Positions 1-44,306 of a stretch of 49,846 nucleotides of DNA are shown one piece after another. The stretch's first letter is position 1, and each line of letters begins with the position of its first letter. The stretch lies in IMG/VR virus record IMGVR_UViG_2529293147_000015; one strand, given 5' to 3'. Source of the DNA: a virus. Taxonomy: Duplodnaviria > Heunggongvirae > Uroviricota > Caudoviricetes. The notes below the pieces were generated by a model. That model saw only the letters and a list, made by a program, of their open reading frames with translations, did not search any database and had not been told where the DNA came from. Position numbers and translations under genes: made by a program.

Positions 1-585
1 TTATTCCATAACAGGGGTTGCAGGCCACTCAATATCCGGTGCAGTTGATGTATCAACACGGTTCAGCAACACCCGATACTTTTTCCAGGCTTCCAGCAAT
101 GAGGTTTCTTCCTCCGTTGCGATTTCCAGATCTACAGCATCCTGAAGTGGCGCAATATGCTCACTGGCTACCTGCATCAGGCTGTTTTTTGTTTCTTCCG
201 CCTCTCGGATCCGGAACAGTTTTTCTGCTTCTGCATCTTTCACCCAGGCTGTGCCGTTCCACTTCTGAAACTCCCCTTCCGGCGATAACCAGGTAACATT
301 TTCCGGTAACGGACCGAGTTCAGAAATAAATAACGCGTCCCCTGACGCTACGTCATAAACCGTTTTACCCCGATGGTCTTCAACGAGATGCCACGATGCC
401 TCATCACTGTTGAAAACAGCCACGAAGCCTGCCGGAATATCTGGCGGTGCAATATCGGTACTGTTTGCTGGCAGACCTGTATGAGGCGGAATATATGCAT
501 CACCTTCACCAATAAATTCATTAGTTCCGGCCAGCAGATTATAAATTTTTATGGTCCGTGGTTGTTCACTCATTCTGAATGCCAT
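1..585 (-). CDS. tfa: Tail fibre assembly protein Tfa
   Basis: 194-aa [27 protein letters not shown]... ending ...[11 protein letters not shown], matching lambda Tfa as I remember it; stop codon at window positions 1-3. Confidence 0.85.
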
Positions 586-25405: not shown

Positions 25406-25972
25406 TTAAACTGCTACGCGCTCTTTCATCCAGCCGTAAACAAACGACTCGTTAGCCTCCCGTTTCTCTGCCAGCTCCAGATAGCGGTCACCCTGCGTAC
25501 AGTTCAGTGCGGTCAGCATTACCAGCTCTCCATCCCTGCCACGATTTTTCAGATATACCCGTAATGCATTAAGAGTACGCGGCCCGATACGTCCGTCTGC
25601 ATCCATATCCGGATACAGTTTCCCGCGCAGGTTGAAAACGTTCAGCCAGCGTTGAAGCATTTTTGACGCCACGGCTGGCCCCATGTTGACGCCCGTATCA
25701 CACAACTCTGCGGCAATATCAGGGGATAACGCTGCCACCTGGTCAAAACGTGGTCCATACCAGTAGTCCGCCTCGAGTATTTCCAGCGCCTGCCCGCGCG
25801 TCAGGTCACGCATATCGCCGCGATATCCGTGAGCGCGGGCGACTTTTTCTGTAATACCCCATTTTGTCGGTCCGCCTTTATCATCCGGGTGATTGACGTA
25901 ACCGCCCTCTTTTCCCAGAACTTCGTCAAAAATTTCATCTTTCGACTTCATATCAGCGCCTTCGTAATACAA
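25406..25972 (-). CDS. Endolysin, GH108-type lysozyme with peptidoglycan-binding domain
   Basis: N-terminal EVLGKEGGYVNHPDDKGGPTKWGIT motif and C-terminal PG-binding-like region. Confidence 0.8.
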   Translation of the reverse strand: MYYEGADMKSKDEIFDEVLGKEGGYVNHPDDKGGPTKWGITEKVARAHGYRGDMRDLTRGQALEILEADYWYGPRFDQVAALSPDIAAELCDTGVNMGPAVASKMLQRWLNVFNLRGKLYPDMDADGRIGPRTLNALRVYLKNRGRDGELVMLTALNCTQGDRYLELAEKREANESFVYGWMKERVAV

Positions 25973-26231
25973 AGATTTTTGAAACGTTCCCGCGTGCGCG
26001 AATCACCAGCACGCAGAACAGCAGATTAAGCCCCACCGCCAGCCAGTTCACCGCTAACGGGCGACCACACAGATAGCTGAGGGGCACAAAGGCATACAGC
26101 AGCATCAGCAGCCAGGCCAGCCATGACATCAGCGGTTTGTGTCTGGAGTCACGACGACGATAAAAAAAGAGCGTCAGCACGATAACCGTGCATAACGCCA
26201 CATTCAGCAATCCGGGAAGGTTACTTAACAT
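25953..26231 (-). CDS. Lysis membrane protein (holin/antiholin candidate)
   Basis: ~92-aa ORF from MLSNLPGLLNVALCTVIVLTLFF... with 2-3 TM segments, overlapping the endolysin start. Confidence 0.5.
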   Translation of the reverse strand: MLSNLPGLLNVALCTVIVLTLFFYRRRDSRHKPLMSWLAWLLMLLYAFVPLSYLCGRPLAVNWLAVGLNLLFCVLVIRARGNVSKIFVLRRR

Positions 26232-26613
26232 TGCCGCCTCCTCCGCCCCGCAGGCGGGAGAACACACCGGACACCAGTGATGCAATATCCTGCTGGTGGA
26301 TGAACGAGAGAATCTTCACCGACACCACTGACACCAGTACTGCACACAGTGCGTCGACAGGCGCTCCGTCAAACCCTGTGTGCTTTACCAGCCAGGATGC
26401 CAGAACCCCTGCCCCCAGCACGCCGATAATGAACGACACCAGAAAATGCGCCGCCACACGCCAGGCTGAAAGCGCCTGCGGAATTGTTGCCACAAATAAC
26501 GCCCCGGCGAACGCACCAAACACAATCCCGAAATCCGTTCCGGTAAACAGCCCGAATCCCGTCGCCCCACCGAGCGCCGCAGCCGTACCGGAACCGGATA
26601 AGGGTTCAGACAT
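26221..26613 (-). CDS. Putative holin (start at MSEPLSG, RBS AGGAGA)
   Basis: 131-aa Gly/Ala-rich multi-TM protein directly upstream of the lysis genes. Confidence 0.55.
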   Translation of the reverse strand: MSEPLSGSGTAAALGGATGFGLFTGTDFGIVFGAFAGALFVATIPQALSAWRVAAHFLVSFIIGVLGAGVLASWLVKHTGFDGAPVDALCAVLVSVVSVKILSFIHQQDIASLVSGVFSRLRGGGGGNVK

Positions 26614-26705
26614 ACTTTTTTCTCCTGTAAATAAAAAAGGGCCACCAGCGGCCCGTAAAAAACAATACCCCGTCAAAGGCACCCGCAGATGCCTTTTGTG
26701 TGGTG

Positions 26706-26858
26706 TTATTCAGATTTACGCAGTAAAGGCCGGAGCACGACCAGCGCCATCACCACCAGCACACCATCTGCCAGCACCGACATCAGCCGTCCGGTGAAAT
26801 CCACTGCCACTACCAGAAACAGCAGGATGGCAGCCAGCACAAGGCGCGCACTTTTCAC
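26706..26858 (-). CDS. Small hydrophobic protein (GTG start overlapping the stop of the TerB-like gene)
   Basis: 50-aa ORF VKSARLVLAAILLFLVVAVDF...; below ORF-track cutoff; GTGA start/stop overlap. Confidence 0.3.
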   Translation of the reverse strand: MKSARLVLAAILLFLVVAVDFTGRLMSVLADGVLVVMALVVLRPLLRKSE

Positions 26859-27280
26859 AGGTACTGCTCCAGCGGTAGCTGAAGCGCCTGCGCAATTTTC
26901 TTGAGCTGTGCTTCTTCATCCGGACCAATGCCATCCTGGTCAGCGATATCCAGACACAGGCACAGCACATTAACTGCATCATCAGTACCGGCGACATCAG
27001 CCAGCTGACGAAGGGCTTCGGCATTGGCTGAACGCGGGGATGCTTCATAACGGGCGCGGATATTGGCGCTCATCTGGGCAATCTCACCGGAGAACGGCGC
27101 AAAGGCAGGAAGTGCTGCAATGGTTTTCTCCAGTACTGCGATTTCTTTCGCATCACAGGTGCCGTCAGCGTATGCAATGGAATACGCGCCCCAGACGGTC
27201 GCCTCCACTGCGTCGCGGTTCTCCATCTTCTTCACTTCGGTAATGGCCTTGCGGGTTTTCTTTTTGAAAATACCAAACAT
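26855..27280 (-). CDS. TerB-like (tellurite-resistance TerB domain) protein
   Basis: 141-aa ORF with TerB-like pattern ...AYADGTCDAKEIAVLEKTIA...LCLCLDIADQDGIGPDEEAQLKKIAQALQL. Confidence 0.55.
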   Translation of the reverse strand: MFGIFKKKTRKAITEVKKMENRDAVEATVWGAYSIAYADGTCDAKEIAVLEKTIAALPAFAPFSGEIAQMSANIRARYEASPRSANAEALRQLADVAGTDDAVNVLCLCLDIADQDGIGPDEEAQLKKIAQALQLPLEQYL

Positions 27281-27455
27281 CGTGACTTTTCCTTTTAGTG
27301 GGTGAGCCTGCGCCCGGTGGTGACCAGCCCACAGAGAAAGTCACACTGACCATCCCGTAAGCTCACCCCTGAAAGGCTCTGTGGTTTTTTGATATTCGCC
27401 GGGCGTGGCGCGGATATGAAAAAGGCCCGCCGAAGCGAGCCTGGAAAAATAAGCG

Positions 27456-27532
27456 TGGCGCGTTGTACTGGATTCGAACCAGTGACCGATTGCTTAGAAG
27501 GCAATTGCTCTGTCCGGCTGAGCTAACAACGC
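27456..27532 (-). tRNA. tRNA-Arg (anticodon TCT)
   Basis: Clean cloverleaf: acceptor GCGTTGT/ACAACGC, anticodon loop CTTCTAA, T-loop TTCGAAT, 3' CCA. Confidence 0.85.
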
Positions 27533-27549
27533 ATAATGCAGATAATAGA

Positions 27550-27625
27550 TTGCCATCGGGGACCCGAGCCCCACACAGCCAGTTTCGAAAGCTGGCACTC
27601 TCTGTCGATGAGCTAATGGCGGTAT
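27550..27625 (-). tRNA. tRNA-like element, degenerate or unusual (possible Arg, anticodon-loop candidate TCG)
   Basis: TAGCTC D-arm start and hairpin arms present, but D- and T-loops non-canonical and acceptor pairing imperfect. Confidence 0.35.
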
Positions 27626-27629
27626 GTGA

Positions 27630-27705
27630 TGGTGGCCCTTGCTGGATTTGAACCAGCGACCTGGCGATTATGAGTCGCTCGCTCTCACCACTGAGCTAAA
27701 GGGCC
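27630..27705 (-). tRNA. tRNA-Ile2 (anticodon CAT, ileX/ileZ-like)
   Basis: GGCCCTTTAGCTCAGTGGTGAGAGC...CTCATAA...GGTTCAAATCCAGCAAGGGCCACCA. Confidence 0.85.
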
Positions 27706-27754
27706 GGGAGCAGAATAATAATGGTGCGTAATTAATTCTGCAATCTCATCCGTT

Positions 27755-28804
27755 TCAAACGATTAAATCCTGAACTTCCCTGACTGTCTGTTCAAAACGT
27801 CCGGTCTCCAGCTCAACACCAATCGCACAACGCCCCAGTGCCATCGCCGCTTTTACCGTTGAACCTGAACCCATAAAAAAATCCGCAACCAAATCACCAG
27901 GGTGACTGCTGGCCTCAATTATCTGCCGCAACATATCTGCCGGTTTTTCACAGGGATGTTTGCCCGGATAAAACTGCACGGATTTATGCGTCCAGACATC
28001 CGTATACGGAACGGCAGCCGATACGGAAAAATAACGCCGCAAAGATTTATACTCTTCCAGCAGGCTGGCATATTGCCGGTTCAGTTCACTGTATGTGCTG
28101 ACCAGCTGGTGGTGTGGCTTTTCCAGTTCCCCTCGCTGATGCTTTTCTGCCGCAACACGCGCAAACAACGCCTGCAATTTGTTGTAATCCCCCTCGTTCG
28201 GTAATTGCCACTGACTGGTACCAAACCAGTGCGAAGCCATGTTTTTCTTTCCGGTGGCTTCCGCTATCTGTTTTGACGTTATTCCCAGTGATTCACGCGC
28301 ATCACGAAAGTAAGAAATCAGCGGGGCCATGACGTGCTGTTTTAGCTCACGCCCCTTTGCCTCATAGCCGTCATTTTTGGGCTGGTATGGCCCCTGATAA
28401 TGTTCTGCAAACAGAATGCGCTCTGTTGCCGGGAAATACGCCCGCAGGCTTTCCTTGTTGCACCCGTTCCAGCGCCCTGACGGCTTCGCCCAGATAATGT
28501 GGTTCAGCACATTAAAGCGCTGACGCATCATGATTTCGGTGTCAGATGCCAGGCGATGACCACAGAACAGGTAAAGACTTCCTGCGGGCTTCAGTCCCCG
28601 CCAGAACTGCGCCAGACACTGATTCAGCCATTTCAGGTAATCATCGTCGCCCTTCCACTGGTTATCCCAGCCCTCGGGCTTCACTTTAAAGTATGGCGGG
28701 TCTGTGACTATCAGATCGACAGAATTTTCCGGTAAGGTCTGGATAAATTCCAGACAATCAGCGTTGATTAACTCACAACTGGATATTTTTACAGTATTAG
28801 CCAT
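27755..28804 (-). CDS. Orphan DNA N6-adenine methyltransferase
   Basis: TDPPY catalytic motif and FFMGSGST AdoMet-binding motif; no adjacent restriction gene. Confidence 0.85.
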   Translation of the reverse strand: MANTVKISSCELINADCLEFIQTLPENSVDLIVTDPPYFKVKPEGWDNQWKGDDDYLKWLNQCLAQFWRGLKPAGSLYLFCGHRLASDTEIMMRQRFNVLNHIIWAKPSGRWNGCNKESLRAYFPATERILFAEHYQGPYQPKNDGYEAKGRELKQHVMAPLISYFRDARESLGITSKQIAEATGKKNMASHWFGTSQWQLPNEGDYNKLQALFARVAAEKHQRGELEKPHHQLVSTYSELNRQYASLLEEYKSLRRYFSVSAAVPYTDVWTHKSVQFYPGKHPCEKPADMLRQIIEASSHPGDLVADFFMGSGSTVKAAMALGRCAIGVELETGRFEQTVREVQDLIV

Positions 28805-28940
28805 AGATCAATAAGCACTTCTCTGATAGGCTCATACCGCTTTTGCGCAAAGCAGATGGGCCTGAGGTTTGCTTGTGACCACAACGCATGAGCAGATGGC
28901 TGGCAGGTGCCGCTAACACCCACCAGCCGCCCATTACCAC

Positions 28941-28967
28941 AAATTAAAAAACCTTCACCGCGGAAGG
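28941..28967 (-). terminator. Intrinsic terminator upstream of the methyltransferase gene
   Basis: Minus-strand hairpin CCTTC-cgcggt-GAAGG followed by TTTTTTAATTT. Confidence 0.45.
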
Positions 28968-29152
28968 CGTCTGTAACAACCGAACTGATAATCTGCCAGA
29001 CCCGCCATAACAAGCTGGGTCAGTATTAACTGGCAGCGTTCGCGTGAAAGGTAAGTATTCTGCGCAATCTCCCCGACGGTCGCCGGTTCGGTGACGCTTA
29101 ATTCATTAAACACCACTCTGGCAGTTTCGGTCATATCCTGCTGTTTTAGCAT
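28955..29152 (-). CDS. Small hypothetical protein, possibly HTH-like (start at MLKQQDM assumed)
   Basis: 66-aa ORF; alternative upstream start at 29275. Confidence 0.35.
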   Translation of the reverse strand: MLKQQDMTETARVVFNELSVTEPATVGEIAQNTYLSRERCQLILTQLVMAGLADYQFGCYRRLPR

Positions 29153-29274
29153 GTCTTTTTCCCTTTTCTGGTTAACGTGACATACCAATAACTCTTGTCG
29201 AAAAAGCCAGCAAGCTGAAAGACCGGTATTCGCAACCACCAGCACGTTTAACGTACTGCGCCGTTTTTCGGACA

Positions 29275-29297
29275 CAAAAAACCGCCTGGCGGCGGGT
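29275..29297 (-). terminator. Intrinsic terminator (tR'-like candidate) in the Q-late gene interval
   Basis: Minus-strand hairpin CCGCC-gcca-GGCGG followed by TTTTTTGT. Confidence 0.45.
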
Positions 29298-29433
29298 TTA
29301 AGCTGTGTGGCGAAGTAACCACTCTTAACAGCATATTTGATTTTTTACGATTGTAAACATCTGTTCGGCGATGTCTTTTTACGATAAAATTTAGTCGAAC
29401 TTTTCTTGTACGATAATTCACAAGCAGGCCCAT

Positions 29434-29913
29434 ATGAAAAAAATAGCATTGACATTATTAAGTACATTGATCATTACAGGGTGTACGGCTCAATCTTCCG
29501 CAGAAAACAGAAATAGTGATCATTATGCGTATTTAAAGAAATGCGAAAATATCACCTTGGACAACACGCCCCAGCAAGTTAACAAAAATAATTTTTTAAA
29601 GCTTCTATATAAGGGAGAAATGATAATCAACACTACACAATTTATTACTTCCAGCAAGCAAGATATGTTAGTGAGAGTTGGCTGGGATCCCGATATATCA
29701 AAAGCAATCGCTGACTGCGACATCGAGCAAATGATGATCGTTTTAAATGCAGCAAAAGAACCATTTGAAAAACTCAAGGCAAACACAAAATCACCTACAG
29801 AGCGAGAAGCATTAATCAAAACGTATAGCGCATGGGAAAACTACGTAAGTTCTCCATCCAGAGAAAACAAAAATAATTTTAACGAAAAAGCGAGTTATTA
29901 TAAAAACATTTAA
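29434..29913 (+). CDS. Lipoprotein moron, AT-rich, convergent to Q
   Basis: MKKIALTLLSTLIITGC lipobox; visibly lower GC than flanks; upstream TACGAT repeats; downstream inverted repeat ACCCTCTCC-gca-TGGAGAGGGT. Confidence 0.65.
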   Translation: MKKIALTLLSTLIITGCTAQSSAENRNSDHYAYLKKCENITLDNTPQQVNKNNFLKLLYKGEMIINTTQFITSSKQDMLVRVGWDPDISKAIADCDIEQMMIVLNAAKEPFEKLKANTKSPTEREALIKTYSAWENYVSSPSRENKNNFNEKASYYKNI

Positions 29914-29957
29914 TTCATACCCTCTCCGCATGGAGAGGGTATGTGAGTTAAGTTTTA

Positions 29958-30332
29958 TCAGTCCATGTCCAGCTTGATATCAAGCATCATCAACATGCCG
30001 TCAACTATCCCTTCAGCCTTTTGCAACAAACGGCCAACCCAGCAATCCGAACGACCATGCTTTCGTGCTAGCGCCATAAACGTCATGCCCGCCACGTAAT
30101 AATCTACCAGCAAATCGTGTAATTCTTTGTTGTTCTTATTCAACCGGGCCATACAGCCACAAATGATCATTGCGTCATCGTCGGAACATTGCGGACGCGA
30201 TTTAACTTTCGACGGTATTAATCCTTTAAAGCCAGCAGCAATCGATGGCCATGTGACATCCTCATGATTATTTGCCACCCACGCTCCCCAACGCTCAAGA
30301 ACCATCTGAATATCACGTGCCATCGTTACCAC
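29958..30332 (-). CDS. Q: Late-gene antiterminator Q
   Basis: 124-aa [31 protein letters not shown]... with Cys/His cluster, typical of Q-family proteins of E. coli prophages. Confidence 0.75.
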
Positions 30333-30684
30333 CTGTAATTTCGTAAATCTTCACGCCCAGCCGACCACCAGGTACAAGCTGACTGCGCACAATATTAATT
30401 TCATCAAACTGCTCGTCGTCGATAAGCAGTCCCGCATGTGTCAGTGCATCCAGTGGCGCTTTCAGGATATTGTCCAGGTCACGACGGCGCTTATCCGGTG
30501 GCTCCACAATAATCCTGATCGCCAGCCTTCCGGACAGATTTAATTTCAGTCGCTGCTGGCGAACAATGAGCGCCACATCACGGCGATAACGCTCACCGGC
30601 TTTTGATACAAAATATGTACTGCCACGACGTCGCCAGTAGGTGTTCACCGTTGGCGGGTAAGGCAAAACAAACTCTATACGCAT
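30313..30684 (-). CDS. rusA: Holliday junction resolvase RusA
   Basis: RRRDLDN catalytic motif, ~123 aa. Confidence 0.85.
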
Positions 30685-30696
30685 CAGTAACCTCTT

Positions 30697-31746
30697 TTAC
30701 CCGAGCACGCCGGTTGCAAAGGCGTGATCAAGAAAACGAAAAATTAAATCAATCTGGGAACCATGCTTTTCTTCAAATGCCAGCGGATCAGCATGAAGTT
30801 CATTGTGATGCTCCCGGCACAGCGGTAGCGTGAAAATATCGTGGGCTTTTGTCCCCATCCCTCCCTGACCGTGACCAATCAGGTGATGGGGATCGTCGGC
30901 TGGCTTACCACAACATGCACACGGCTGTGTCTTAACCCAGCGCGTGTACTTTTCGTTAACCCAGCGGCGACGTTTAGGTCGCTTCATGAAAGATTCAGGA
31001 GACTCCGGATCAACGGCAATGCTGACCACCGTCTTTTCCTGTGGTGGGTTCTGTTGCTGGTGGGCGTGAGGCGGTAGCACAATATTTTTTGTGCGCTGCT
31101 TCAGTATGCTGGTGGCTGTCTGCTCTCCCGGTATGATGTCGCTTTCACGGTACACAGAGCGGATTTTTTCCGCACGTAACCCCAGAGAACGACGTAATAC
31201 TGCCTCCGGAAGCGCGTCCGCCACCTGATTGCGGACCGCCCACCAGGATAATTCAGCCAGCGATAATTCCCGCTCCTGCGTGCCATTCACTGCATGGCGT
31301 ATGACGTCAATCATCCATGCTGACAGGTTTTGATGAGCAAGTTGCCCGAGTGATTCGGATGTCTGGTCACGCAGCTGGTTGTCGCAGTGCCAGCACAGCA
31401 CCATCGCGCCGGTACCGTAACGATGTATGACGGTTTCACTGTGATGGTAGTCACCATGAGGCCACTGGCAGGATTTAACATGACGCAGGAGCCAGTCAGA
31501 CAGTGCACCAGCGCCGCCGGCAGCACGAATCACCCGCTCATCGCTGAAAAATGGCAGCAGAGATTTGTCTTCCGCCAGCGGCTGGCGAACGGCAGGAACG
31601 ACCCCGGACGGCAGACCGCGCATGCTTTTTGGCTCCGGTTCAACCAGCACTCTGCCGTTATGGAATACCTGCATGGATTCACGACCTGGCTTAACGATAA
31701 CCACCCCAAGTTCCGGCACCAGAACAGGTCGAAGTAATACCCGCAC
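30697..31746 (-). CDS. NinG/DUF968-like phage protein with C-terminal Cys/His (HNH-like) motif
   Basis: C-terminal ...CACCGKPADDPHHLIGHGQGGMGTKAHDIFTLPLCREHHNELH; located in the nin region beside rusA. Confidence 0.55.
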   Translation of the reverse strand: MRVLLRPVLVPELGVVIVKPGRESMQVFHNGRVLVEPEPKSMRGLPSGVVPAVRQPLAEDKSLLPFFSDERVIRAAGGAGALSDWLLRHVKSCQWPHGDYHHSETVIHRYGTGAMVLCWHCDNQLRDQTSESLGQLAHQNLSAWMIDVIRHAVNGTQERELSLAELSWWAVRNQVADALPEAVLRRSLGLRAEKIRSVYRESDIIPGEQTATSILKQRTKNIVLPPHAHQQQNPPQEKTVVSIAVDPESPESFMKRPKRRRWVNEKYTRWVKTQPCACCGKPADDPHHLIGHGQGGMGTKAHDIFTLPLCREHHNELHADPLAFEEKHGSQIDLIFRFLDHAFATGVLG

Positions 31747-31747
31747 G

Positions 31748-32149
31748 TTACCTCCAGATGCGTTGCTGGAATGTGCGGGACGGACGCGGTGGGCGTTCGG
31801 AATAAGGGAGTCTGACGTAGATTATCCAGTGACGATAATCGAGGCTGAGGGCTTTCCTAAACTCATACCCACGTCTGCGGTAGTTATGAATCAGCCATTC
31901 GGCCTGTTCTTCAGTGCAGGGGTCGTGCTGATACCAGTCATATTTGAATGCGTGCGAACACCGCCCGTGCCTGCTGGCACGAACGGTATCAGAATTGTGT
32001 AATTTGGTCTTGTGCGCCATCTGTTTTCTCTGCTGGCGCAGCAGGTGCCAGTTGTTCAGGCTGGCATGTGGATTGTAAACCAGGATGCTCAGAAAAAACA
32101 AAACCCGCCGAAGCGGGTTAAGTGCGGGTGCATTGAGGATGCCTGACAC
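31748..32149 (-). CDS. Hypothetical nin-region protein (start uncertain)
   Basis: ORF with Cys/His-rich basic C-terminal part; 1-nt gap to the downstream gene. Confidence 0.4.
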   Translation of the reverse strand: MSGILNAPALNPLRRVLFFLSILVYNPHASLNNWHLLRQQRKQMAHKTKLHNSDTVRASRHGRCSHAFKYDWYQHDPCTEEQAEWLIHNYRRRGYEFRKALSLDYRHWIIYVRLPYSERPPRPSRTFQQRIWR

Positions 32150-32193
32150 ATCAGAGGTGGCGAGGGATTTCTCCCCCGCCAGGTCTCTTACTC

Positions 32194-32343
32194 CTCAGGT
32201 TCGTAAGCTGTGAAGACAGCGACCTCCGTCTGGCCGGTTCGGATTCGTACCTCGCAGAGGTCTTTCCTCGTTACCAGTGCCGTCACTATGACGGTTAAAC
32301 AGATGACGATCAGGGCGATTAACATCGCCTTTCGCTGCTTCAT
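32194..32343 (-). pseudogene. hok/gef-family type I toxin, C-terminus frameshifted by a 1-nt insertion
   Basis: Reads MKQRKAMLIALIVICLTVIVTALVTRKDLCEVRIRTGQTEV then RCLHSLRT*; removing one C near 32220 restores the canonical ...VAVFTAYEPEE* ending; small upstream ORF (32340..32399) whose stop overlaps the hok ATG. Confidence 0.6.
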
Positions 32344-33062
32344 AGCCCGCTTCTCCTTGACCTTTCGGTCCGTAAGAGGCTAATCTCTATGTGTCGCATA
32401 GATATGGCCTCAGATTAATGTTAAGCGTCTTGCAGGACGCGTAATGTTAACTGGGGCTTTTCTCTATCTGCCTTTGGTGTTCATGCCTGAGGCAGATAGC
32501 CTCAAGCACCCGCAGCAATTCTACTTAACTCCCGTCACCTCGCCAATATAAAATCAATCAGAAAGGCGATCCATAAGAACAACAGCAAGACAATAAATTG
32601 CCATTACAGCCGCAATAGCTAGCGCACATTTGAGAACCAGCACGACAACCTCCTGTATTGGACGTACACCAGTTCTGATAAATATGAGGCTGTCTCATCA
32701 TTGATTCAATATAACTATTGGGTATAGTTTCTGTGATTTTGTTCTGTAGAAATGGAACACAACAACCAGTCACCACCAGCACTTCTTTAAATACGCCAAG
32801 TCCGACGCAAGCTAACCTTCTAGTCCGCTTTGAGCGAGGAGCGGACCAAACCCGGCCAACTGACTCTTAAAGGGGCCGCAGGAATTTTTCGTCTGAACTT
32901 TCGAAGCTCCTCTCCCTGAAGACAGAAAACTTCTGTGTGCTGTGGGAATATTGAATCTTTGCATTAGATATAAATAATTTTATCCCGCCTGAAGTTTACA
33001 TTATTTTATTTATCTGTTTTTCTAAATCAGACTGCACTCCTTACTTAAATCAGGAGCCAGTC

Positions 33063-34262
33063 ATGCCATTTGTTATTTATGTGTTTACTATCAGTGCCTT
33101 TGCGCTCGGACTCGCGGAATTTGTCCCCATTGGGCTGACAGACGTTATGGCTCAGGGGTTGTGTGTGGGTGTGGAGCAGACCGGGGCAGCGGTTACAACC
33201 TATGCACTGGGGGCAACGTTCGCGGCACCCGTACTGTCTGCGCTGACAGCAAGCTGGAGCCGGAAAAATGTAATGCTTACAACTGCCGTTGTGTTTACTG
33301 CCGGTAGTCTGGCGGCCGCGTTTGCAGCCACATTACCTCAGCTCCTGTTAGCGCGGTTCATTGCTGGTCTGGGACACGGCCTGTTTCTGGCTGCGGCATC
33401 CAGTACCGCAGCTCGTCTTGCTGGACCGGGTAAAGCAGGCAGAGCGGTGGCTGTGGTATTTGGTGGCTTTACTCTGGCGATGGCAATCGGCGTACCGCTG
33501 AGTACATGGTTGGGGGGGGTGGTCTCATGGCGTCCAGTTCTCGGCGCTATTGCCGCTTTTGGCGCGTTCGGATTCCTTGGACTGTTGTTCGGTATGAAAG
33601 ATCCCGTACGCAGCGTGCCCGGTGAACATAGTGACTCAGCAATGCAGAATATCGGCATGCTGTTTAACCGTAAGTTGCTGGCCGGCGCGCTGGTTACGGT
33701 GCTGGCGTATGCAGGCTCGTTTACGGCTTACACCTTTATCGCACCTATTCTGACGCAGGTGACAGGGGTTACCGGAGCAACGGTGAGTCTGTTTATGCTG
33801 GTTTACGGTATTACAGCTGCGGTAGGTAATATTCTTGGTGGGAAACTTACCGACAGCATGGGGGTTAATCGTGCCAATATACTCATCATTAGCGGCATTG
33901 TTGTTGTCGTGCTTGGTATGTGGCTGCTGTCATCCTCACCGGTGAGCATGGGCATTCTGGTTGCGCTGCTGGGTATGGTGACATTTGCCGCAGTGCCGGC
34001 ACTGCAGGCCCGTCTGATTGGTGTCGCTGAGCAACATGCTCCTCATGCGCATGGTGTTGCTGCCGGCCTGAATATTGCGGGCTTCAACTCAGGTATAGCG
34101 CTGGGATCAGTACTGGGCAGCATTACTATAAGCCACGCCGGTATCGTGTATACCGGTATCAGCGGTGCGATTGTTTCTCTGCTCGGCCTGCTGTTGCTGC
34201 TTGCACAAATCCGTCGCAGCCACAGTCGTAAATTTCAACAGGTTAAAATCGTAGGCCAGTAA
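33063..34262 (+). CDS. MFS transporter (12-TM efflux type)
   Basis: 399-aa polytopic membrane protein with characteristic Gly-rich TM helices. Confidence 0.8.
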   Translation: MPFVIYVFTISAFALGLAEFVPIGLTDVMAQGLCVGVEQTGAAVTTYALGATFAAPVLSALTASWSRKNVMLTTAVVFTAGSLAAAFAATLPQLLLARFIAGLGHGLFLAAASSTAARLAGPGKAGRAVAVVFGGFTLAMAIGVPLSTWLGGVVSWRPVLGAIAAFGAFGFLGLLFGMKDPVRSVPGEHSDSAMQNIGMLFNRKLLAGALVTVLAYAGSFTAYTFIAPILTQVTGVTGATVSLFMLVYGITAAVGNILGGKLTDSMGVNRANILIISGIVVVVLGMWLLSSSPVSMGILVALLGMVTFAAVPALQARLIGVAEQHAPHAHGVAAGLNIAGFNSGIALGSVLGSITISHAGIVYTGISGAIVSLLGLLLLLAQIRRSHSRKFQQVKIVGQ

Positions 34263-34273
34263 AGGGAGGTTAT

Positions 34274-34966
34274 ATGCTTACCCGTGAAAATATGCTTAAT
34301 GGCACATTTGTCAGGGTGCATGAAGCGCTGCTCCCGGCGAATATGCTCTGGGACGCTGAAAAAATACGCGCATCAATGAACTCTACTCTGGAGGAGCGCC
34401 CGACGGGTGCTCCTTTCTGGATATTTGCCTACGGGTCATTGATGTGGAATCCCGTGCTGGCAATTGAAGAAATGCAACGGGCCCGTCTGAAAGGATGGCA
34501 GCGCAGTTTCTGCATTCGTTTGATATCCGGACGAGCGACTCCTGATGTCCCCGGCAGGATGTTATCGCTCGACGAAGGTGGAATTACCGAAGGGATTGCG
34601 TTCAGACTGCCGGAATCGACTCTTATTAATGAGCTGGAAATTGTCTGGACGCGCGAGATGATAACCGGTCTTTACCGTCCGGTCTGGGCAGACGTTTCGC
34701 TAGGAAACGGTGAGGAAATTCAGGCGCTGGCTTTCGTATCAGACAGACTGCATCCGCATTATGAACAGGACAATCTTACAGCGACCGTAGCATTGAGCAT
34801 CGCATCTGCCCGTGGAGACATTGGCACGAATGCAGATTATGTATGGAAACTGCAGGCCACTCTGGGTGCGTTGGGAATACGGGATGATTACGTGAGTGAA
34901 CTGGCCCTTGCTCTGCATGAGGCTCCCTGTAACGATAAACTTCATCAGCGAGGCGCTTCACTATGA
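34274..34966 (+). CDS. ChaC-like gamma-glutamylcyclotransferase family protein
   Basis: FWIFAYGSLMWNP motif and ...LWTREMITG... Confidence 0.75.
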   Translation: MLTRENMLNGTFVRVHEALLPANMLWDAEKIRASMNSTLEERPTGAPFWIFAYGSLMWNPVLAIEEMQRARLKGWQRSFCIRLISGRATPDVPGRMLSLDEGGITEGIAFRLPESTLINELEIVWTREMITGLYRPVWADVSLGNGEEIQALAFVSDRLHPHYEQDNLTATVALSIASARGDIGTNADYVWKLQATLGALGIRDDYVSELALALHEAPCNDKLHQRGASL

Positions 34967-35844
34967 GCCATCTGAGCCATCTGCGAACGTTTCTTGAGGC
35001 CTATCGCTCTGGCTCCTTTTCAAAGGCGGCAGAACTACTGGGCATCACTCAGCCCGCGGCGTCACAGCATATCCAGTCTCTTGAGACTCTGGTTGGTAAG
35101 CGTCTGTTTATCAGGCAGGCCAGAGGCGTGACGGCAACCGAAGCTGCGGATGAGCTTGCCCGCTCAGTTTCACCCTTCATTGATGGTCTGGAAGAAAAGC
35201 TGTCCTCTTTCCGGTCAGGCTCTGTACACGGGGGAACAATTAATCTGGCAGGACCGCCAGATTTTATTCATTCCCGGCTTGGGACAGTAATGGCTCCACT
35301 AATGAAGGAGGGGTATCGCTTACGCTTTCATACCGGCAATAAGCAACGTATTTATTCCCTTTTGCATGACGGGAGCGCCGATCTCGCTGTTACCGCATCT
35401 ATGCCTGATGACCGTCTGTACGGCTATGCACATCTACTGACTGAACGCATGCTCCTTGTTCATGCTCCCGCCATGTCAGAGATCATCGGATCAGAACCTG
35501 GTGCTGAAACGCTTGCCTCATTACCGCTGATTGCTTATGACGAAGAGTTGCCACTGATTAGAGCGCTCTGGGCCTCCATGTTTCAGAGAGCCCCTGAGAT
35601 GCAGGCTACATTCACCATTCCGGATTTACGTATTATCCGCGACTTGGTCTGTGACGGCCACGGGTGGACAGTGCTGCCGGATTATCACTGTGACAATGAC
35701 CTGAAAAGTGGTCGCCTGATTTCAGTGACCCCTGCAGACCTCGCTCCGACTAATCATCTTTATCTGGTCTGGAACAAAAGGACGGCTAATAACAGCCGAA
35801 CCGCCTATGTTCGGGATTACATTCTTAAAACGTTTCCGCGTTGA
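34963..35844 (+). CDS. LysR-family transcriptional regulator
   Basis: N-terminal HTH (LRTFLEAYRSGSFSKAAELLGITQPAASQHIQSLE) plus substrate-binding domain; start overlaps the ChaC-like stop. Confidence 0.85.
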   Translation: MSHLSHLRTFLEAYRSGSFSKAAELLGITQPAASQHIQSLETLVGKRLFIRQARGVTATEAADELARSVSPFIDGLEEKLSSFRSGSVHGGTINLAGPPDFIHSRLGTVMAPLMKEGYRLRFHTGNKQRIYSLLHDGSADLAVTASMPDDRLYGYAHLLTERMLLVHAPAMSEIIGSEPGAETLASLPLIAYDEELPLIRALWASMFQRAPEMQATFTIPDLRIIRDLVCDGHGWTVLPDYHCDNDLKSGRLISVTPADLAPTNHLYLVWNKRTANNSRTAYVRDYILKTFPR

Positions 35845-35888
35845 TGTTTGAAACGGATGATTGGCGATGCGTATCATAAGTTACGTAT

Positions 35889-35918
35889 GTCCGCTTCTGG
35901 CACAAAGCAGACGCCCAC
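35889..35918. repeat. Direct repeat copy 1 (GTCCGCTTCTGGCACAAAGCAGACGCCCAC)
   Basis: ~30-bp imperfect direct repeat of 39562..39591; the pair brackets the DUF2254 and BCCT genes. Confidence 0.5.
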
Positions 35919-35974
35919 TCTCACGCGAATGCTTTGCCCTTGACTTGCCAACAACCGTATCGCTTGCTCCGCAA

Positions 35975-37267
35975 CTATGGTTTTTTATTAGAACCTTCGC
36001 CACTAAATAAATTATAATAAATTGATTTTATTAGATATCTGTCAGAATCTATATGGTCAGCACGAGTAGCATGCTCTAATGTTTCAAATGCTAGGGTTTG
36101 TGCGGCTTCAGCAAAAATTCCAGGCCAACCCTTACTCAGCATCGACAGTCCTTTAAGTACCCTTATCTGAATTTCCCTCATACTGGCACCATCGCGCGCA
36201 ACAGGTGAGAAAAAGTCTTCAAGTAGATCGTTATTCTGAAGTGGTGCAACATGTACAGAAGGATATTTCACTTCTATTTCATCAGATTTATTCTGCGCGT
36301 AAGCGGAAAGTATACGTACACCTCTGCCAATGACATCAATGGCGGTTCCAGGATCGTTCACTGCGGGGGAAAGGGCTCGGCAGGCTATTTCGGCCATGAC
36401 GCTAAGACAAAATCGGGGGTCCTGAGCAAATGAACGTACATCCGAGACAATAATCGTCTCAAGTAAATCGGTGCTGATTGATGACTCCTGGCCCTGACTC
36501 AGGTACAAAACTGGCGTGGACGGATGTATGAAACTGCCCGGCTGCGCCACGAGGTATACATGACGGGGATCATTGGTCAGCAGCTTGCTGAGTTTCACCA
36601 TATCAACATATTCAACATAGCCAATCTTTTTCGGATAAACTGCAACCGTTCCTTTCGGCTGTTCATTGTTCTCAAGCCAAGGATATCCGCCGAGACAGGG
36701 ATTTCTTGCTCTCGCAATAAATGTTTCGATGGCCGCCTGTTCTACTTTTGCCGTTGTCTCACCAACCCTCCCCAGAGAGGTCAAATGCTGTATCCAGCGA
36801 AGCAATGTGATGAGGATTAAGGCAATGACAACCAGTGTTACAATGAATAAAATGACTCTCCCCCTTTCTCCATAAGCTCCCATATTGAGGGCAATAATCC
36901 CTACCAGACTGAAGAGAAAAGAACCGATGAAGGTGGCCAGTACATTTTGTGTGGTGACGTCTTCAACAACTAAACGAGTAGCTCTGGGAGTCACATTAGT
37001 AGTGGCTGAACCGTAGGCTGTGACCATGATGCTCAGCGAAAATGTGGTCACTGCCAGCATACTCGATGCCAGTATGTTCAGAATGTTATCGACTGCTTCC
37101 GCACCAACCTTCACGGAAACCGACTCAGGTATCATTGATTTAAAAAGAATTGATAAAAGGGCCGTTATTATTGCGACAATTGCGAATAACGTTGCCCTGA
37201 ACCATAGTTTTTTAAATGTCTGCTTCAGCATCCATTTCCAGCGTGAAATCATTCTGCATTCCCTCAT
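35975..37267 (-). CDS. DUF2254-type integral membrane protein
   Basis: 430-aa ORF with N-terminal TM bundle and soluble C-terminal domain. Confidence 0.6.
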   Translation of the reverse strand: MRECRMISRWKWMLKQTFKKLWFRATLFAIVAIITALLSILFKSMIPESVSVKVGAEAVDNILNILASSMLAVTTFSLSIMVTAYGSATTNVTPRATRLVVEDVTTQNVLATFIGSFLFSLVGIIALNMGAYGERGRVILFIVTLVVIALILITLLRWIQHLTSLGRVGETTAKVEQAAIETFIARARNPCLGGYPWLENNEQPKGTVAVYPKKIGYVEYVDMVKLSKLLTNDPRHVYLVAQPGSFIHPSTPVLYLSQGQESSISTDLLETIIVSDVRSFAQDPRFCLSVMAEIACRALSPAVNDPGTAIDVIGRGVRILSAYAQNKSDEIEVKYPSVHVAPLQNNDLLEDFFSPVARDGASMREIQIRVLKGLSMLSKGWPGIFAEAAQTLAFETLEHATRADHIDSDRYLIKSIYYNLFSGEGSNKKP

Positions 37268-37315
37268 ATTGCAGCCGGGATAAATAAATGCCGCCTCTGT
37301 GGCGGCATGTTGCTG

Positions 37316-39319
37316 TTAACGAACCAGATGCAGGAAGTGCAGGTGTTTTTCGTACTGGTCCAGTATGTCATTAATCAGCTGTTCCTGATTCCAGCCCATT
37401 ACATCATAATTTTGGCCGCCCTCTTTGAGATAGACTTCAGCGCGATAATATCGATGTTGTTCACTCTGCTGCTCATCATTATCCAGCGCAGCGAGCGCGA
37501 AGGTCGGTGAGTTATACCCGCGAAGCCTCACTTCATATATATAATTCAGCTCGTTGCCCAAATCGACTTCAAGGCGAATACGATCCTCGGCGGCGTCACT
37601 GATGTGGCTTATCGTTCCCTGCTTGTTAAGTTCCTCCTGAACCAGCGTCATGGCGGGTTGGATAATGTCGTCCATAAAACGTTTCACAAGAGAGCGCTTC
37701 GGCAAATACGCGATATTGCGTAACCTTCTCTGCCAGGGAATTGGGTTACGTGCAGCCGTAGGAGCAATAGTCGCCATGCTAAGGCTTTCACGCTTGGTCA
37801 AATCCCGACGCAGGGCTTTTAACAGTCCGTATATGGATATTAATAAGATAACTGAGAAGGGCAATGCACTCGCTATCGTTACGGTTTGCAACGCACTCAG
37901 CCCCCCTGCGATCAGCAGGGCAATAGCAACAACGCCCATGAGCGATGCCCAGAAAATTCGCTGCCAGACGGGCGTGTTTGCCACCCCACCTGATGCCAGA
38001 GTATCCACAACCATTGCCCCCGAATCAGCAGACGTTACAAAGAAGACGATGACCATCGCCATTGCAATGAATGACAGCACGGAAGAGAACGGGAAATGCT
38101 CCAGGAAATTAAACAGGGCAAGCGCAACATCCTGCTGAACGGTATTGGCGAGGTCAGTGGCGCCCTGGTTCATGATGAGATAGATGGCGCTGTTTCCAAA
38201 CACCGTCATCCACATGAGCGTAAAGCCGGCGGGAACAAACAACACGCCAGTCACGAACTCACGAATTGTCCTGCCGCGGGAAACGCGTGCAATGAACATA
38301 CCTACAAACGGCGACCATGAAAGCCACCATCCCCAGTATAATAATGTCCAGCCCCCCAGCCAGTTGCTCGACTTGGGTTCATACGCGTAAAGGTTGAACG
38401 TTTTACTCACCAGTTCCGACAGATAACCACCCGTATTTTCCACAAATGACTTCAGCAGAAGCACAGTGGGACCCAGGCACAAGACCAGCGCCAGGAGCAA
38501 CACCGCCAGGCCCAGATTAAGCTCAGACAGGATGCGTATTCCCTTGTCCAGGCCGGACACCACCGAAATCGTCGCTAACCCCGTGATGACCACGATCAAA
38601 ATGACCTGTACCGTTTCATTGATGGGCACGCCGAAAAGATGGTTCAAACCGGCATTCACCTGCAATACACCGTAACCCAGTGATGTTGCAACGCCAAAGA
38701 CAGTGCCTATCACGGCGAAGATATCAACCGCGTGGCCTATAGGCCCGTAAATGCGATCGCCGATAATGGGATAGAGCGCAGAACGCAGCGTTAAAGGCAG
38801 ACCGTGACGGTAACTGAAAAAGGCCAGAATCAGCGCCACGATGGCATAAATTGCCCATGCGTGCAGACCCCAGTGGAAGAACGTCAGGCGCATGGCTTCC
38901 TTCGCTGCCGCAACGGTCTCTGGAGTGCCGACAGGTGGCGAAAGATAATGCATCACAGGTTCGGCAACGCCAAAGAACATCAGGCCGATCCCCATCCCTG
39001 CCGAAAAAAGCATCGCGAACCAGGAGTGGTAGCTGAAATCAGGCTGCGCATGGTCTGGGCCCAGCTTTATATCACCGTAACGTGAGAGTCCAAGGAACGT
39101 GACGCTCAGTAAAATCAGGGCCACAGCAAGTATGTAGAACCAGCTGGCATTCGTGAAGATTTGTTGCTGAAGTAGTTTAAAATTTTTGTCGGCGACATCC
39201 GGGAATACGGCGGCAAAGGCGACAAGAAGGAAAATTAGCAAAGCAGATGTAAAGAATACCGCTTTGTTAATCTGGCTTGTAGACTTCTTTGGGGTTGTAT
39301 CATTTTCACTCATAATCAT
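37316..39319 (-). CDS. BCCT-family (betaine/carnitine/choline) transporter
   Basis: 667 aa; BCCT signature around WTLLYWGWWLSWSPFVGMFIARVSRGRTIREF. Confidence 0.85.
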   Translation of the reverse strand: MIMSENDTTPKKSTSQINKAVFFTSALLIFLLVAFAAVFPDVADKNFKLLQQQIFTNASWFYILAVALILLSVTFLGLSRYGDIKLGPDHAQPDFSYHSWFAMLFSAGMGIGLMFFGVAEPVMHYLSPPVGTPETVAAAKEAMRLTFFHWGLHAWAIYAIVALILAFFSYRHGLPLTLRSALYPIIGDRIYGPIGHAVDIFAVIGTVFGVATSLGYGVLQVNAGLNHLFGVPINETVQVILIVVITGLATISVVSGLDKGIRILSELNLGLAVLLLALVLCLGPTVLLLKSFVENTGGYLSELVSKTFNLYAYEPKSSNWLGGWTLLYWGWWLSWSPFVGMFIARVSRGRTIREFVTGVLFVPAGFTLMWMTVFGNSAIYLIMNQGATDLANTVQQDVALALFNFLEHFPFSSVLSFIAMAMVIVFFVTSADSGAMVVDTLASGGVANTPVWQRIFWASLMGVVAIALLIAGGLSALQTVTIASALPFSVILLISIYGLLKALRRDLTKRESLSMATIAPTAARNPIPWQRRLRNIAYLPKRSLVKRFMDDIIQPAMTLVQEELNKQGTISHISDAAEDRIRLEVDLGNELNYIYEVRLRGYNSPTFALAALDNDEQQSEQHRYYRAEVYLKEGGQNYDVMGWNQEQLINDILDQYEKHLHFLHLVR

Positions 39320-39561
39320 TTATTCCATTAATTAAATCCGCACTGGATAGAAGGTACTACCTCTCACAGAGTAGCAAAGTTCAACTGGCTATGCGGGGTT
39401 AATCGGAATGCATGGTGGAATGAGTGCCGATACAAATCATCCTATATTCTAAGGAGTTTTAAGTTACTCAGCCTGCCAATTACTGGGGCATTTAATTTGT
39501 ATGATCTGTATCAAAGCTGGGATATAAGTTAAGTGAAGTATATTAGGCACGAATTACCAGC

Positions 39562-39591
39562 GTCTGCTCTTGGCACAAAGCGGACAACCAC
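39562..39591. repeat. Direct repeat copy 2 (GTCTGCTCTTGGCACAAAGCGGACAACCAC)
   Basis: Matches 35889..35918 at ~24 of 30 positions. Confidence 0.5.
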
Positions 39592-39653
39592 GCTAGCTCT
39601 ACCCTGTGCCACAAAATGTCAATTTGCATCTGAACTAATGCACTTTAATCTCG

Positions 39654-40076
39654 TCACTTCAATAAATACCGAACATCCCCCTGATAAAACGACAATATGC
39701 GCTGCATAACTTCGCTCTTCCGGCACTCGCGACAGATTATGTTTAGGCGACTGTCGTAGCGACGTATTTCTCCGTCAGGTAATGACCAGATAAGGTCCGG
39801 ATCAACCACAACCGGTTTCTTCAGCTTTGCCCTCGATAATTTTTTGCGGGCATTTTGCCAGTCTTTACGAGCCTGTTCAGACGGGAATAACCCGTAGCCA
39901 GAATTGTATACATCGCCACTGGCAACCAGCTCTCTGGCCAGAACGCTCATCAGATATCTTGTTGCCCCAGTTTTAGCTTCCAGTTGTCGTAACGTCTCGC
40001 GCCCACTCTGGCGTACGAGTTCAAGAACCTGCCCTTTAATTTTTTCCCGCTCTTCTTGTGTAAAAACTTTTGCCAC
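39654..40076 (-). CDS. Hypothetical phage early protein, possibly DNA-binding
   Basis: 140-aa ORF downstream of the replication initiator. Confidence 0.5.
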   Translation of the reverse strand: MAKVFTQEEREKIKGQVLELVRQSGRETLRQLEAKTGATRYLMSVLARELVASGDVYNSGYGLFPSEQARKDWQNARKKLSRAKLKKPVVVDPDLIWSLPDGEIRRYDSRLNIICRECRKSEVMQRILSFYQGDVRYLLK

Positions 40077-43829: not shown

Positions 43830-44306
43830 TGACAGTTTACTGAAAGGATATTTCCCTGAAAAGTCAGACCATAACGCGAAAGCGCACGGCGAGGTAGCTG
43901 GTTCATAGATAGCCTGTCGTTAAATTTTCGTCGACCGTGCGCTTCCGGTTGTGGCAATCCGCGAAATGGCGCGGCGGTAAGTATGGCGGGGTTATTCCTT
44001 CCCCCGTTGAGGACACCGGGTTGTCAGGTTGACCATACGCTTAAGTGACAACCCCGCTGCAACGCCCTCTGTTATCAATTTTCTGGTGACGTTTGGCGGT
44101 ATCAGTTTTACTCCGTGACTGCTCTGCCGCCCTTTTTAAAGTGAATTTTGTGATGTGGTGAATGCGGCTGAGCGCACGCGGAACAGTTAAAACCAAAAAC
44201 AGTGTTATGGGTGGATTCTCTGTATCCGGCGTTAATTGTTAACTGGTTAACGTCACCTGGAGGCACCAGGCACCGCATCACAAAATTCATTGTTGAGGAC
44301 GCGATA

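Follow-up and report, generated by a model that had tools for sequence, protein, structure and literature searches.

The lambdoid-prophage counterpart of phage P1 tciA/tciB: a coupled TerB and DUF3927 gene pair in the slot that carries stx in Stx2 phages

The tciA-tciB(-tciC) genes of phage P1 were reportedly named and annotated by Lobocka et al. in 2004. In the P1 record NC_005856, they correspond to gp074-076 and lie within the C1-repressed ban operon. The gene names were derived from homology only; no experimental function for tciA/tciB was found in the literature of the roughly twenty years since naming. A genome-wide CRISPRi screen of P1 scored tciA/tciB as non-essential (PMC10695390), and about half of the P1 subgroup-1 phage-plasmids have lost the pair (PMC9603915). 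In a 2025 preprint, the P1 tci genes are listed only as differentially expressed.

TerB domains have since been found in anti-phage systems, namely the validated defence systems Bunzi and Shango, and TerB was reported to be membrane-associated with a suggested role in membrane surveillance (10.1101/2022.05.11.491447; PMC10250203). The TerB protein of Bunzi has predicted transmembrane helices (10.1101/2022.05.11.491447). Here, we describe a TerB-type gene and a coupled small ORF in a window of 49,846 nt (the whole stretch of DNA that was analysed), which is a lambdoid E. coli prophage. The features of the locus are collected in Table 1.

Table 1. Features of the tciA/tciB locus and its surroundings, in the order of transcription.
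Feature	Coordinates	Strand	Basis or remark
Antiterminator Q	30332..29958	minus	Pfam Phage_antitermQ E = 6.4e-51
N6/N4 DNA methyltransferase	28804..27755	minus	Pfam N6_N4_Mtase E = 1.2e-42
tRNA(CAT) and tRNA-Arg(TCT) pair	27705..27630 and 27532..27456	minus	ARAGORN, Rfam
Terminator-like hairpin that follows tRNA-Arg and marks the module's upstream end	27423..27442	minus	Matches the annotated tRNA-stx2A terminator of phage 06-3462
Conserved leader of ~140 nt travelling with tciA	27281..27421	minus	Homology boundaries, diversity
tciA homologue, 141 aa	27280..26855	minus	ATG start
GTGA start/stop overlap	26855..26858	minus	Read from sequence; translational coupling
tciB homologue, 50 aa	26858..26706	minus	GTG start
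Strong hairpin with T-run, like an intrinsic terminator, separating tciB from the first holin gene	26629..26654	minus	Hairpin 26654..26639
Lysis cassette, directly 3' of the pair	25406..26613	minus	Pfam and PHROG matches
Phage_holin_8 gene	26613..26221	minus	Lysis cassette member 1
3-TM holin gene	26231..25953	minus	Lysis cassette member 2
GH108 endolysin gene	25951..25406	minus	Lysis cassette member 3

Identity and families of the two proteins

With P1 TciA and TciB, the two proteins encoded in the window share 86% and 47% identity, respectively, and the locus is almost certainly the lambdoid-prophage version of P1 tciA/tciB. Exact window sequences of the pair are already in public databases, with the exact 50-aa protein present on 234 public contigs. 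PGAP names the two genes 'tellurite resistance TerB family protein' and 'DUF3927 family protein' in E. coli, where 165 of 5426 complete genomes carry the full pair and 424 have a match. The pair, which an earlier note on this DNA had put forward as a candidate exclusion or stress module, is therefore not new: it is P1 tciA/tciB, has its PHROG families and PGAP names, and is already known, named and widely annotated. As a finding, it is an ordinary accessory pair of a common E. coli prophage. What is added here is the full-length TerB homology, which is visible only at the level of profile and fold; the conservation of the pair, an invariant peptide signature and a class with a non-TerB partner; and the combination of no detectable promoter with a strongly conserved leader that has no explanation.

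The TerB-domain assignment of the 141-aa protein, already made in the earlier note, was borne out by profile search, family profile and fold. The protein matches Pfam TerB (PF05099) with 32.4 bits against a cut-off of 24.4, the aligned residues being only 11-57, and phrog_632 ('tellurite resistance') over its full length with E = 4e-65. An exhaustive search of 1.84 billion representatives gave a TciA family of 175 representatives, mostly of 140-150 aa and 30-40% identity. An alignment of 72 members was the basis for the profile tests: all 72 match Pfam TerB (best E = 1.6e-19), and 32 of them also match DUF533, a membrane-anchored TerB-like family. The family profile matches the Klebsiella TerB structure 2JXU with E = 2.9e-28 (positions 6-142 against 12-149), and hhalign of the family with plasmid terB returned a probability of 99.4% (134 columns, 16% identity). 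When TciA was compared pairwise with PDB sequences and plasmid terB, no match came up; this was not counted against membership because the homology emerged only with the family profile. The AlphaFold model of TciA (pLDDT 90.3) is all-helical with six helices; Foldseek returned the TerB-like folds 2H5N (top match, probability 1.00) and 2OU3. On the strength of the 72-member alignment, the 2JXU profile match, hhalign and the fold, TciA is, as judged by sequence and predicted structure, a genuine TerB homologue over its full length, although a very divergent one.

Two acidic ADG-x5-E motifs (D39, G40 and E46; G117 and E122, each conserved in at least 90%) are proposed as a putative metal site. 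The N-terminus carries a conserved basic MFGxFKKK and is basic over the first 20 residues, while the body is acidic with a pI of 4.2; the protein is predicted to be cytoplasmic and soluble. DjlA gives a weak alignment with the C-terminal ADG repeat (39 columns, 67% probability), and an NCBIfam search with both proteins gave no family match except DjlA below threshold.

The 50-aa peptide matches Pfam DUF3927 (PF13064) with 49 bits against a cut-off of 25 and phrog_1470 ('TciB-like') with E = 6.5e-24. Its residues R5, D20-F21-T22, S27, D31 and P44 are invariant across the DUF3927-type peptides encoded beside TerB genes. The hydropathy and charge layout is that of a two-helix hydrophobic hairpin with positive charges at both ends. 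In a model of the TciA-TciB fusion, for which only TciA alignment rows were used (MAFFT placed the included peptides on the TciA half), the TciB part is a helix-turn-helix with pLDDT 77-95. TciB is thus predicted to be a 50-residue helical-hairpin peptide of the inner membrane with two invariant aspartates. The possibility that it is a fragment or miniature of TerC was also considered and rejected, the hhalign probability between the DUF3927 family and TerC being 0.15%.

Both ORFs are taken as real genes and not chance ORFs because of the Pfam and PHROG scores, the pooled dN/dS, which is 0.08 for tciA (very strong purifying selection) and 0.34 for tciB, and the kept overlap of the two genes. 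A ribosome-binding site, AAGGA, lies 9-13 nt upstream of the tciA ATG.

Position in the late region and transcription

On the minus strand, Q is followed by the methyltransferase, the tRNA pair, tciA/tciB, the two holin-family genes and the GH108 endolysin, so that the Q / methyltransferase / tRNA / holin layout recognized in the earlier note is confirmed. Its comparison of the slot with that of stx is likewise supported by sequence identity and by gene order. Many Stx2 phages have a tRNA cluster with 91.4% identity to window positions 27407-27754, and the annotation of phage 06-3462 places a terminator and then stx2A/stx2B after this cluster. The pair hence fills a prime cargo site that elsewhere carries Shiga toxin genes. 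In E. coli STEC308 and SE11, the annotated order of methyltransferase, tRNA, pair and holin matches that of the window, as does the lysis cassette. Seven IMG/VR prophage contigs (L075-L081) match the window proteins, four of them with 100% identity across TciA, methyltransferase and Q. In other E. coli prophages, the Q-side region is 97% identical, with homology ending at window position 27422.

The pair is bracketed by terminator-like hairpins (Table 1), the downstream sequence being GGGCCGCTGGTGGCCC followed by TTTTTTATTT. In about 70 of 82 loci, the homology that includes the leader of tciA breaks off within 27421-27451. Its diversity (pi) is 0.053 versus 0.219 at the third codon positions of tciA in the same 45 loci, and the leader is ~4x more conserved than synonymous sites. 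In the consensus fold, CCUUU pairs with the Shine-Dalgarno AAAGG; the fold has a z-score of -2.06 with a negligible covariation term of -0.31, the sequences varying too little for a pairing test. Rfam gave no family for the leader or the spacer at gathering and permissive thresholds. Standard and relaxed (at least 8 of 12) scans of the gene strand at 27260-27470, which address the sigma-70-like consensus only, found no sigma-70-like promoter, and the strongly conserved leader may hide a promoter or regulator that a consensus scan misses. A preprint links the sRNAs PasA, PasC and PasD to prophage TerB genes. The flanks of the pair were compared with these sRNA genes of E2348/69 and the assignment was rejected, as only chance matches of 11-12 nt were found elsewhere in the window.

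The earlier note had described the pair as a moron expressed from the late promoter or its own. The downstream terminator expected of such a unit is there; the own promoter was not found. Late or lytic expression is better supported than expression from an own promoter in lysogens, because no promoter was detected and the P1 pair belongs to the ban operon. Q lies upstream, and more terminators stand between it and the pair; most simply, Q-modified polymerase would reach the pair from the late promoter, as it does stx2. Late production of the two proteins would be most likely since the pair sits between terminators in a Q-dependent unit with no detectable promoter.

The main alternative is a lysogenic-conversion moron, which would be expressed in the lysogen from a promoter of its own within the leader and would exclude other phages or colicins in the way of ter Phi/PacB. 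The terminators bracket the pair as in a classical moron, and the leader, with its conservation well above that of synonymous sites, could accommodate such a promoter. However, the gene strand showed no sigma-70-like site even with 8 of 12 matches allowed, and in P1 a repressor controls the lytic operon that contains the pair. Phi and PacB are phenotypes of the multi-gene ter cluster, of which none of the other genes is present in the window. The occurrence of TerB domains in the validated systems Shango and Bunzi (10.1101/2022.05.11.491447; PMC10250203) speaks for an exclusion function, yet the models of PADLOC-DB 2.0, which include Shango and Bunzi, matched neither protein at E ≤ 1. Transcript data are available for prophage PP2 of EPEC E2348/69, where the genes in the equivalent slot were transcribed without induction at 37-226 normalised reads versus 1-3.5 for the lysis genes (PMC8550237, supplement). 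These reads hint at transcription independent of the late promoter in at least one relative, but they come from a non-TerB arrangement (see below). Taken together, we regard the moron explanation as rather unlikely and retain late production in the lytic unit as the preferred reading.

Conservation of the coupling and the proposed role

The two genes share 4 nt at their junction, cTGTGA, where the GTG start of tciB runs into the TGA stop of tciA; the earlier note had described an overlap of this start and stop. Of 96 related loci, 93 have the same 4-nt overlap, and the P1 type has TGATG instead. A search for co-occurrence of the two ORFs showed that the pair is conserved; with the TerB match of the 141-aa protein, neither of the two outcomes that the earlier note had named as refuting occurred. 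Viral contigs that were collected with the peptide as seed carry tciA directly upstream in 80 of 80 cases, while tblastn detected the peptide in 10 of 12 genome loci collected with TciA. Of the two exceptions, one contig stops within tciA, and L014 has a divergent DUF3927-like ORF straight after tciA. IncY P1-like plasmids also have the coupled pair, with a TerB allele 34% identical to that of the window and a P1-type peptide; so do the SSU5-like IncFIB phage-plasmids found in Salmonella and Klebsiella. About 800 plasmid records from E. coli, Klebsiella and Salmonella contain the pair, mostly non-mobilizable and of phage-plasmid type. On three metagenomic phage contigs (L101, L102 and L111), the gene of a TerB relative (33-41% identity) leads straight into a DUF3927-type ORF. 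The pair is therefore conserved across three phage lineages, down to ~33% TerB identity. On such metagenomic contigs, the peptide ORF is often missed by gene callers.

Other TerB relatives have different neighbours. In L106, the next gene is for another type of small protein, which has two helices and whose start overlaps; in L105, it is a small ORF, likewise of another type, with one hydrophobic segment at its N-terminus. L108 is without a small ORF and has TerD and vWA-TerF-like genes downstream. The only TciA-TciB fusion protein found (P0171) comes from a single contig, where a frameshift error may account for it.

The peptide is also found with a partner that is not TerB. In phage 434, phage 2B8 and EPEC E2348/69 PP2, a divergent DUF3927 gene follows the gene of a 247-aa putative membrane protein of phrog_1521, which is unrelated to TerB (hhalign probability 0.07%). 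Prophage PP5 of the same EPEC strain retains only a decayed remnant of the TerB-type pair. Furthermore, an intact tciB stands beside a 5'-truncated tciA in 11-12 loci, and the same peptide C-terminus is found with very different TerB alleles. Because of the phrog_1521 partner and the truncated loci, the peptide is not strictly dependent on a TerB partner. These three observations could be read to mean that the two genes are independent, with the DUF3927 peptide as the active membrane element and the gene upstream (TerB here, phrog_1521 in phage 434) as an exchangeable neighbour unrelated to it. Against such independence, the overlap persists in different genera and with TerB alleles of as little as 33% identity, and the purifying selection on tciA is very strong. 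We consider it improbable.

The position of the pair next to the holins raises the question of a function in lysis timing, in which TciB, with or without TciA, would modulate the adjacent holins in an antiholin-like or membrane-priming manner. More than 70 lambdoid loci have the pair directly upstream of the same Phage_holin_8 and 3-TM holin genes, homology usually runs on through both, and TciB, as a membrane protein, combines small size, two helices and a charged C-terminus. The association breaks down elsewhere, though: P1 and the SSU5-like phage-plasmids lack lysis genes beside the pair, an esterase gene separates tciB from the lysis genes in phage 434, and the loci L087-L096 form a subset with a different downstream context without Phage_holin_8. 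Moreover, TciB matches none of the holin families of Pfam and PHROG. A lysis-timing accessory is, in our estimate, distinctly improbable.

That the pair is a genuine tellurite-resistance determinant, as the Pfam and PHROG names and the full-length TerB homology at profile level would have it, is hardly credible given only 16% identity to operon TerB, the absence of terZ, terA, terC, terD and terE from the window, a tblastn of plasmids with TciA as query that finds no ter-operon terB even at E ≤ 1 (terB occurs in about 2500 plasmid records), and the description of the function of TerB itself as unknown (PMC3728262). The tblastn search of the window with six Ter proteins and the VWA protein likewise gave chance matches only (best E = 0.3). 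Since the window is without the other ter genes, the label 'tellurite resistance' is not justified. The link to tellurite drawn in the earlier note comes down to a distant, profile-detectable homology, and the present analysis corrects an annotation that the gene content does not support.

The explanation that we prefer takes the locus as a P1-type tciA/tciB pair that supplies a tethered TerB protein and conditions the envelope late in phage development; for this explanation as a whole, we see an even chance. In this scheme, tciB would be translated by coupling to tciA through the GTGA overlap, and TciB would dock TciA on the cytoplasmic face of the inner membrane. We propose the tethering because of the hairpin peptide, the acidic TciA with its basic tail, the coupling, the terB-terC gene order and the likeness to DUF533 and DjlA. 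The two polypeptides might then reproduce the layout of a membrane anchor plus a TerB domain that is known from DjlA, DUF533/YebE and Bunzi. Such a membrane-tethered TerB complex is plausible, at slightly less than an even chance. The TciA-TciB complex may sense or buffer the membrane or ion state. Most likely, the pair would be made together with the lysis genes after induction and, in P1, from the C1-repressed ban operon. Its physiological effect, we infer, could be to prepare the host envelope while the phage develops, for example for pore formers, superinfection or a membrane collapse that comes too early, or to keep the membrane stable until the holin fires. Envelope protection or exclusion as the actual role is possible but doubtful. 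The pair would be dispensable for plaque formation and would not in itself be a determinant of tellurite resistance.

A bolder version of this scheme can be conceived, in which TerB and DUF3927 form a self-sufficient minimal Ter-type membrane module that, with no other partner expressed, would shield the envelope from superinfecting phages, pore-forming colicins or membrane stress, and the leader is a cis-regulatory RNA that masks the tciA ribosome-binding site until a signal arrives. We hold this to be unlikely. If it were true, a two-gene system of 600 bp would make the biochemical role of TerB directly testable, a domain that is also present in Shango, Bunzi and DjlA. For the preferred late-made, tethered pair as well, the small two-gene unit offers a cheap route to the role of TerB at the membrane.

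Comparison with known systems

The stx2AB cassette of Stx2 phages likewise comes directly after the homologous tRNA cluster and terminator, downstream of Q. It is a positional analogue of tciA/tciB only, as the genes and their functions are unrelated.

The TerB of the terZABCDE operon (2JXU; IncHI2/IncFIB plasmids and the O157 island) is a full-length homologue of TciA, of similar size and with a TerB-like helical fold, but its 16% identity is undetectable in pairwise comparison. In the canonical operon, the membrane-protein gene terC starts 26 nt after terB, so that the next gene is one for a membrane protein there as well. The downstream partners show no similarity, being a 50-aa DUF3927 hairpin here and the 345-aa TerC in the ter operon. 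In DjlA, DUF533/YebE and Bunzi, a TerB-type domain is held at the inner membrane by transmembrane helices of the same protein, whereas the anchor in the window would be a separate polypeptide. TciA also differs from DjlA in having no J domain.

The pair of phage 434 and EPEC PP2 occupies the same slot after Q and tR', and its peptide belongs to the same DUF3927 family with the DFT...S...D...P signature. Its genes are 85 nt apart, whereas those of the window overlap, and an esterase gene and the PasD2 sRNA follow.

The genes of P1 tciA-tciB are orthologues of the window pair, and their order, the overlapping stop and start, the adjacent tRNA genes, the DNA methyltransferase gene upstream and the orientation within a lytic unit are all shared with the window. 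P1 has tciC in addition, and a TciC-like ORF of 35 aa is present in the IncY locus L098; the window has none, its tciB-holin gap being 92 nt and filled by two hairpins. The window has a GTGA junction and a lambdoid-prophage setting, in the late region that depends on Q; P1 has TGATG and the C1-controlled ban operon.

Leader and recombination in the tciA/tciB module

A leader of about 140 nt precedes tciA, the gene for the TerB-family protein, and was recognized by its conservation, which is about four times that of the tciA synonymous sites, and by its movement together with tciA as one unit. In the predicted fold of this leader, which offers no usable covariation, CCUUU is paired to the tciA Shine-Dalgarno sequence. 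No promoter was found in the leader, and it matched no Rfam family.

Since other E. coli strains match the window at 97% over 27422-40000 and leave the tciAB side unmatched, position 27422 is a recombination junction. Less synonymous diversity was observed in tciB (26706-26858), the DUF3927 peptide gene, with a pooled pS of 0.15, than in tciA (26855-27280), with 0.41; for the first third of tciB, third-position pi was 0.034. Breakpoints of recombination are concentrated at 26745-26755, within tciB. Taken together, the low diversity and the breakpoint cluster suggest that the 3′ end of the module is under added constraint or was recently exchanged.

The matched block also holds LysR, MFS, BCCT-transporter and DUF2254 genes, which resemble cargo of non-phage origin or chromosomal flanks. 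The tRNA-Met (CAT) called by ARAGORN is probably a lysidine-dependent tRNA-Ile2, because its counterparts in Stx phages and in the EPEC strain E2348/69 are annotated as tRNA-Ile (ileZ-like). The lipoprotein-like ORF, for which Pfam gave no match, runs antisense in the interval from Q to the late genes, the expected site of the late promoter and its terminator.

Features in the window and in compared loci (window RNA matches to Rfam at gathering level)
Feature	Location	Coordinates	Strand	Basis or remark
IS009 sRNA	window	44-242		Rfam
Conserved tciA leader	window	27281-27421	-	conservation, co-movement with tciA
tRNA-Met (CAT)	window	27630-27705		ARAGORN
Lipoprotein-like ORF, 159 aa	window	29434-29913	+	phrog_8179, E = 1e-99
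sok antitoxin RNA (hok/sok module)	window	32341-32511		Rfam
LysR, MFS, BCCT-transporter and DUF2254 genes	window	33063-39319		inside block matched by other E. coli strains
DicF	window	44081-44132		Rfam
Divergent DUF3927/TciB gene after non-TerB gene	E. coli E2348/69 PP2 (L116/L113)	NC_011601 740129-741328 (whole locus)
Divergent DUF3927/TciB gene after non-TerB gene	phage 434 (L117)
PP5 locus	E2348/69 (L118)	NC_011601 1286139-1288118

Altered forms and host labels

In 11 or 12 related prophages (IMG/VR loci L046-L056 and L065), an intact tciB stands beside a 5′-truncated tciA, which retains about residues 73-141 only and matches phrog_9865; the methyltransferase gene is nearer there. A 196-aa database protein from a single contig (P0171) joins P1-type TciA and TciB in frame with both Pfam domains, and may be a true fusion or a one-base assembly error. 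Host mislabelling or contamination seems likely for PP818812 ('Actinobacillus phage vB_Apl-pPE4', L002), whose DNA is 95% identical to the E. coli prophage region of the window, and for assemblies labelled Bacillota MAG, Pseudomonas lundensis and Kocuria (L006, L011, L017), which carry tciA at 87-96% identity.

Separated partners in other elements

In PP2 and phage 434, the DUF3927 arrangement occupies the same post-Q slot as the window pair, with a 247-aa putative membrane protein (phrog_1521) as upstream partner instead of TerB. In EPEC, the Hfq-dependent sRNA PasD2 begins 41 nt past the DUF3927 stop codon. In PP5 the methyltransferase/tRNA-Ile/tRNA-Arg block of the window recurs; after it come an unannotated gap of 545 nt and a DUF3927 remnant of 28 aa, with iraM adjoining. 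This locus has the look of a module copy in decay. On a Logan contig (SRR34434907, L108), a distant TerB-family gene (32% identity) has no DUF3927 partner, and TerD and vWA-TerF-like genes are found downstream of it; the phage TerB family is therefore connected with other Ter components in some elements.
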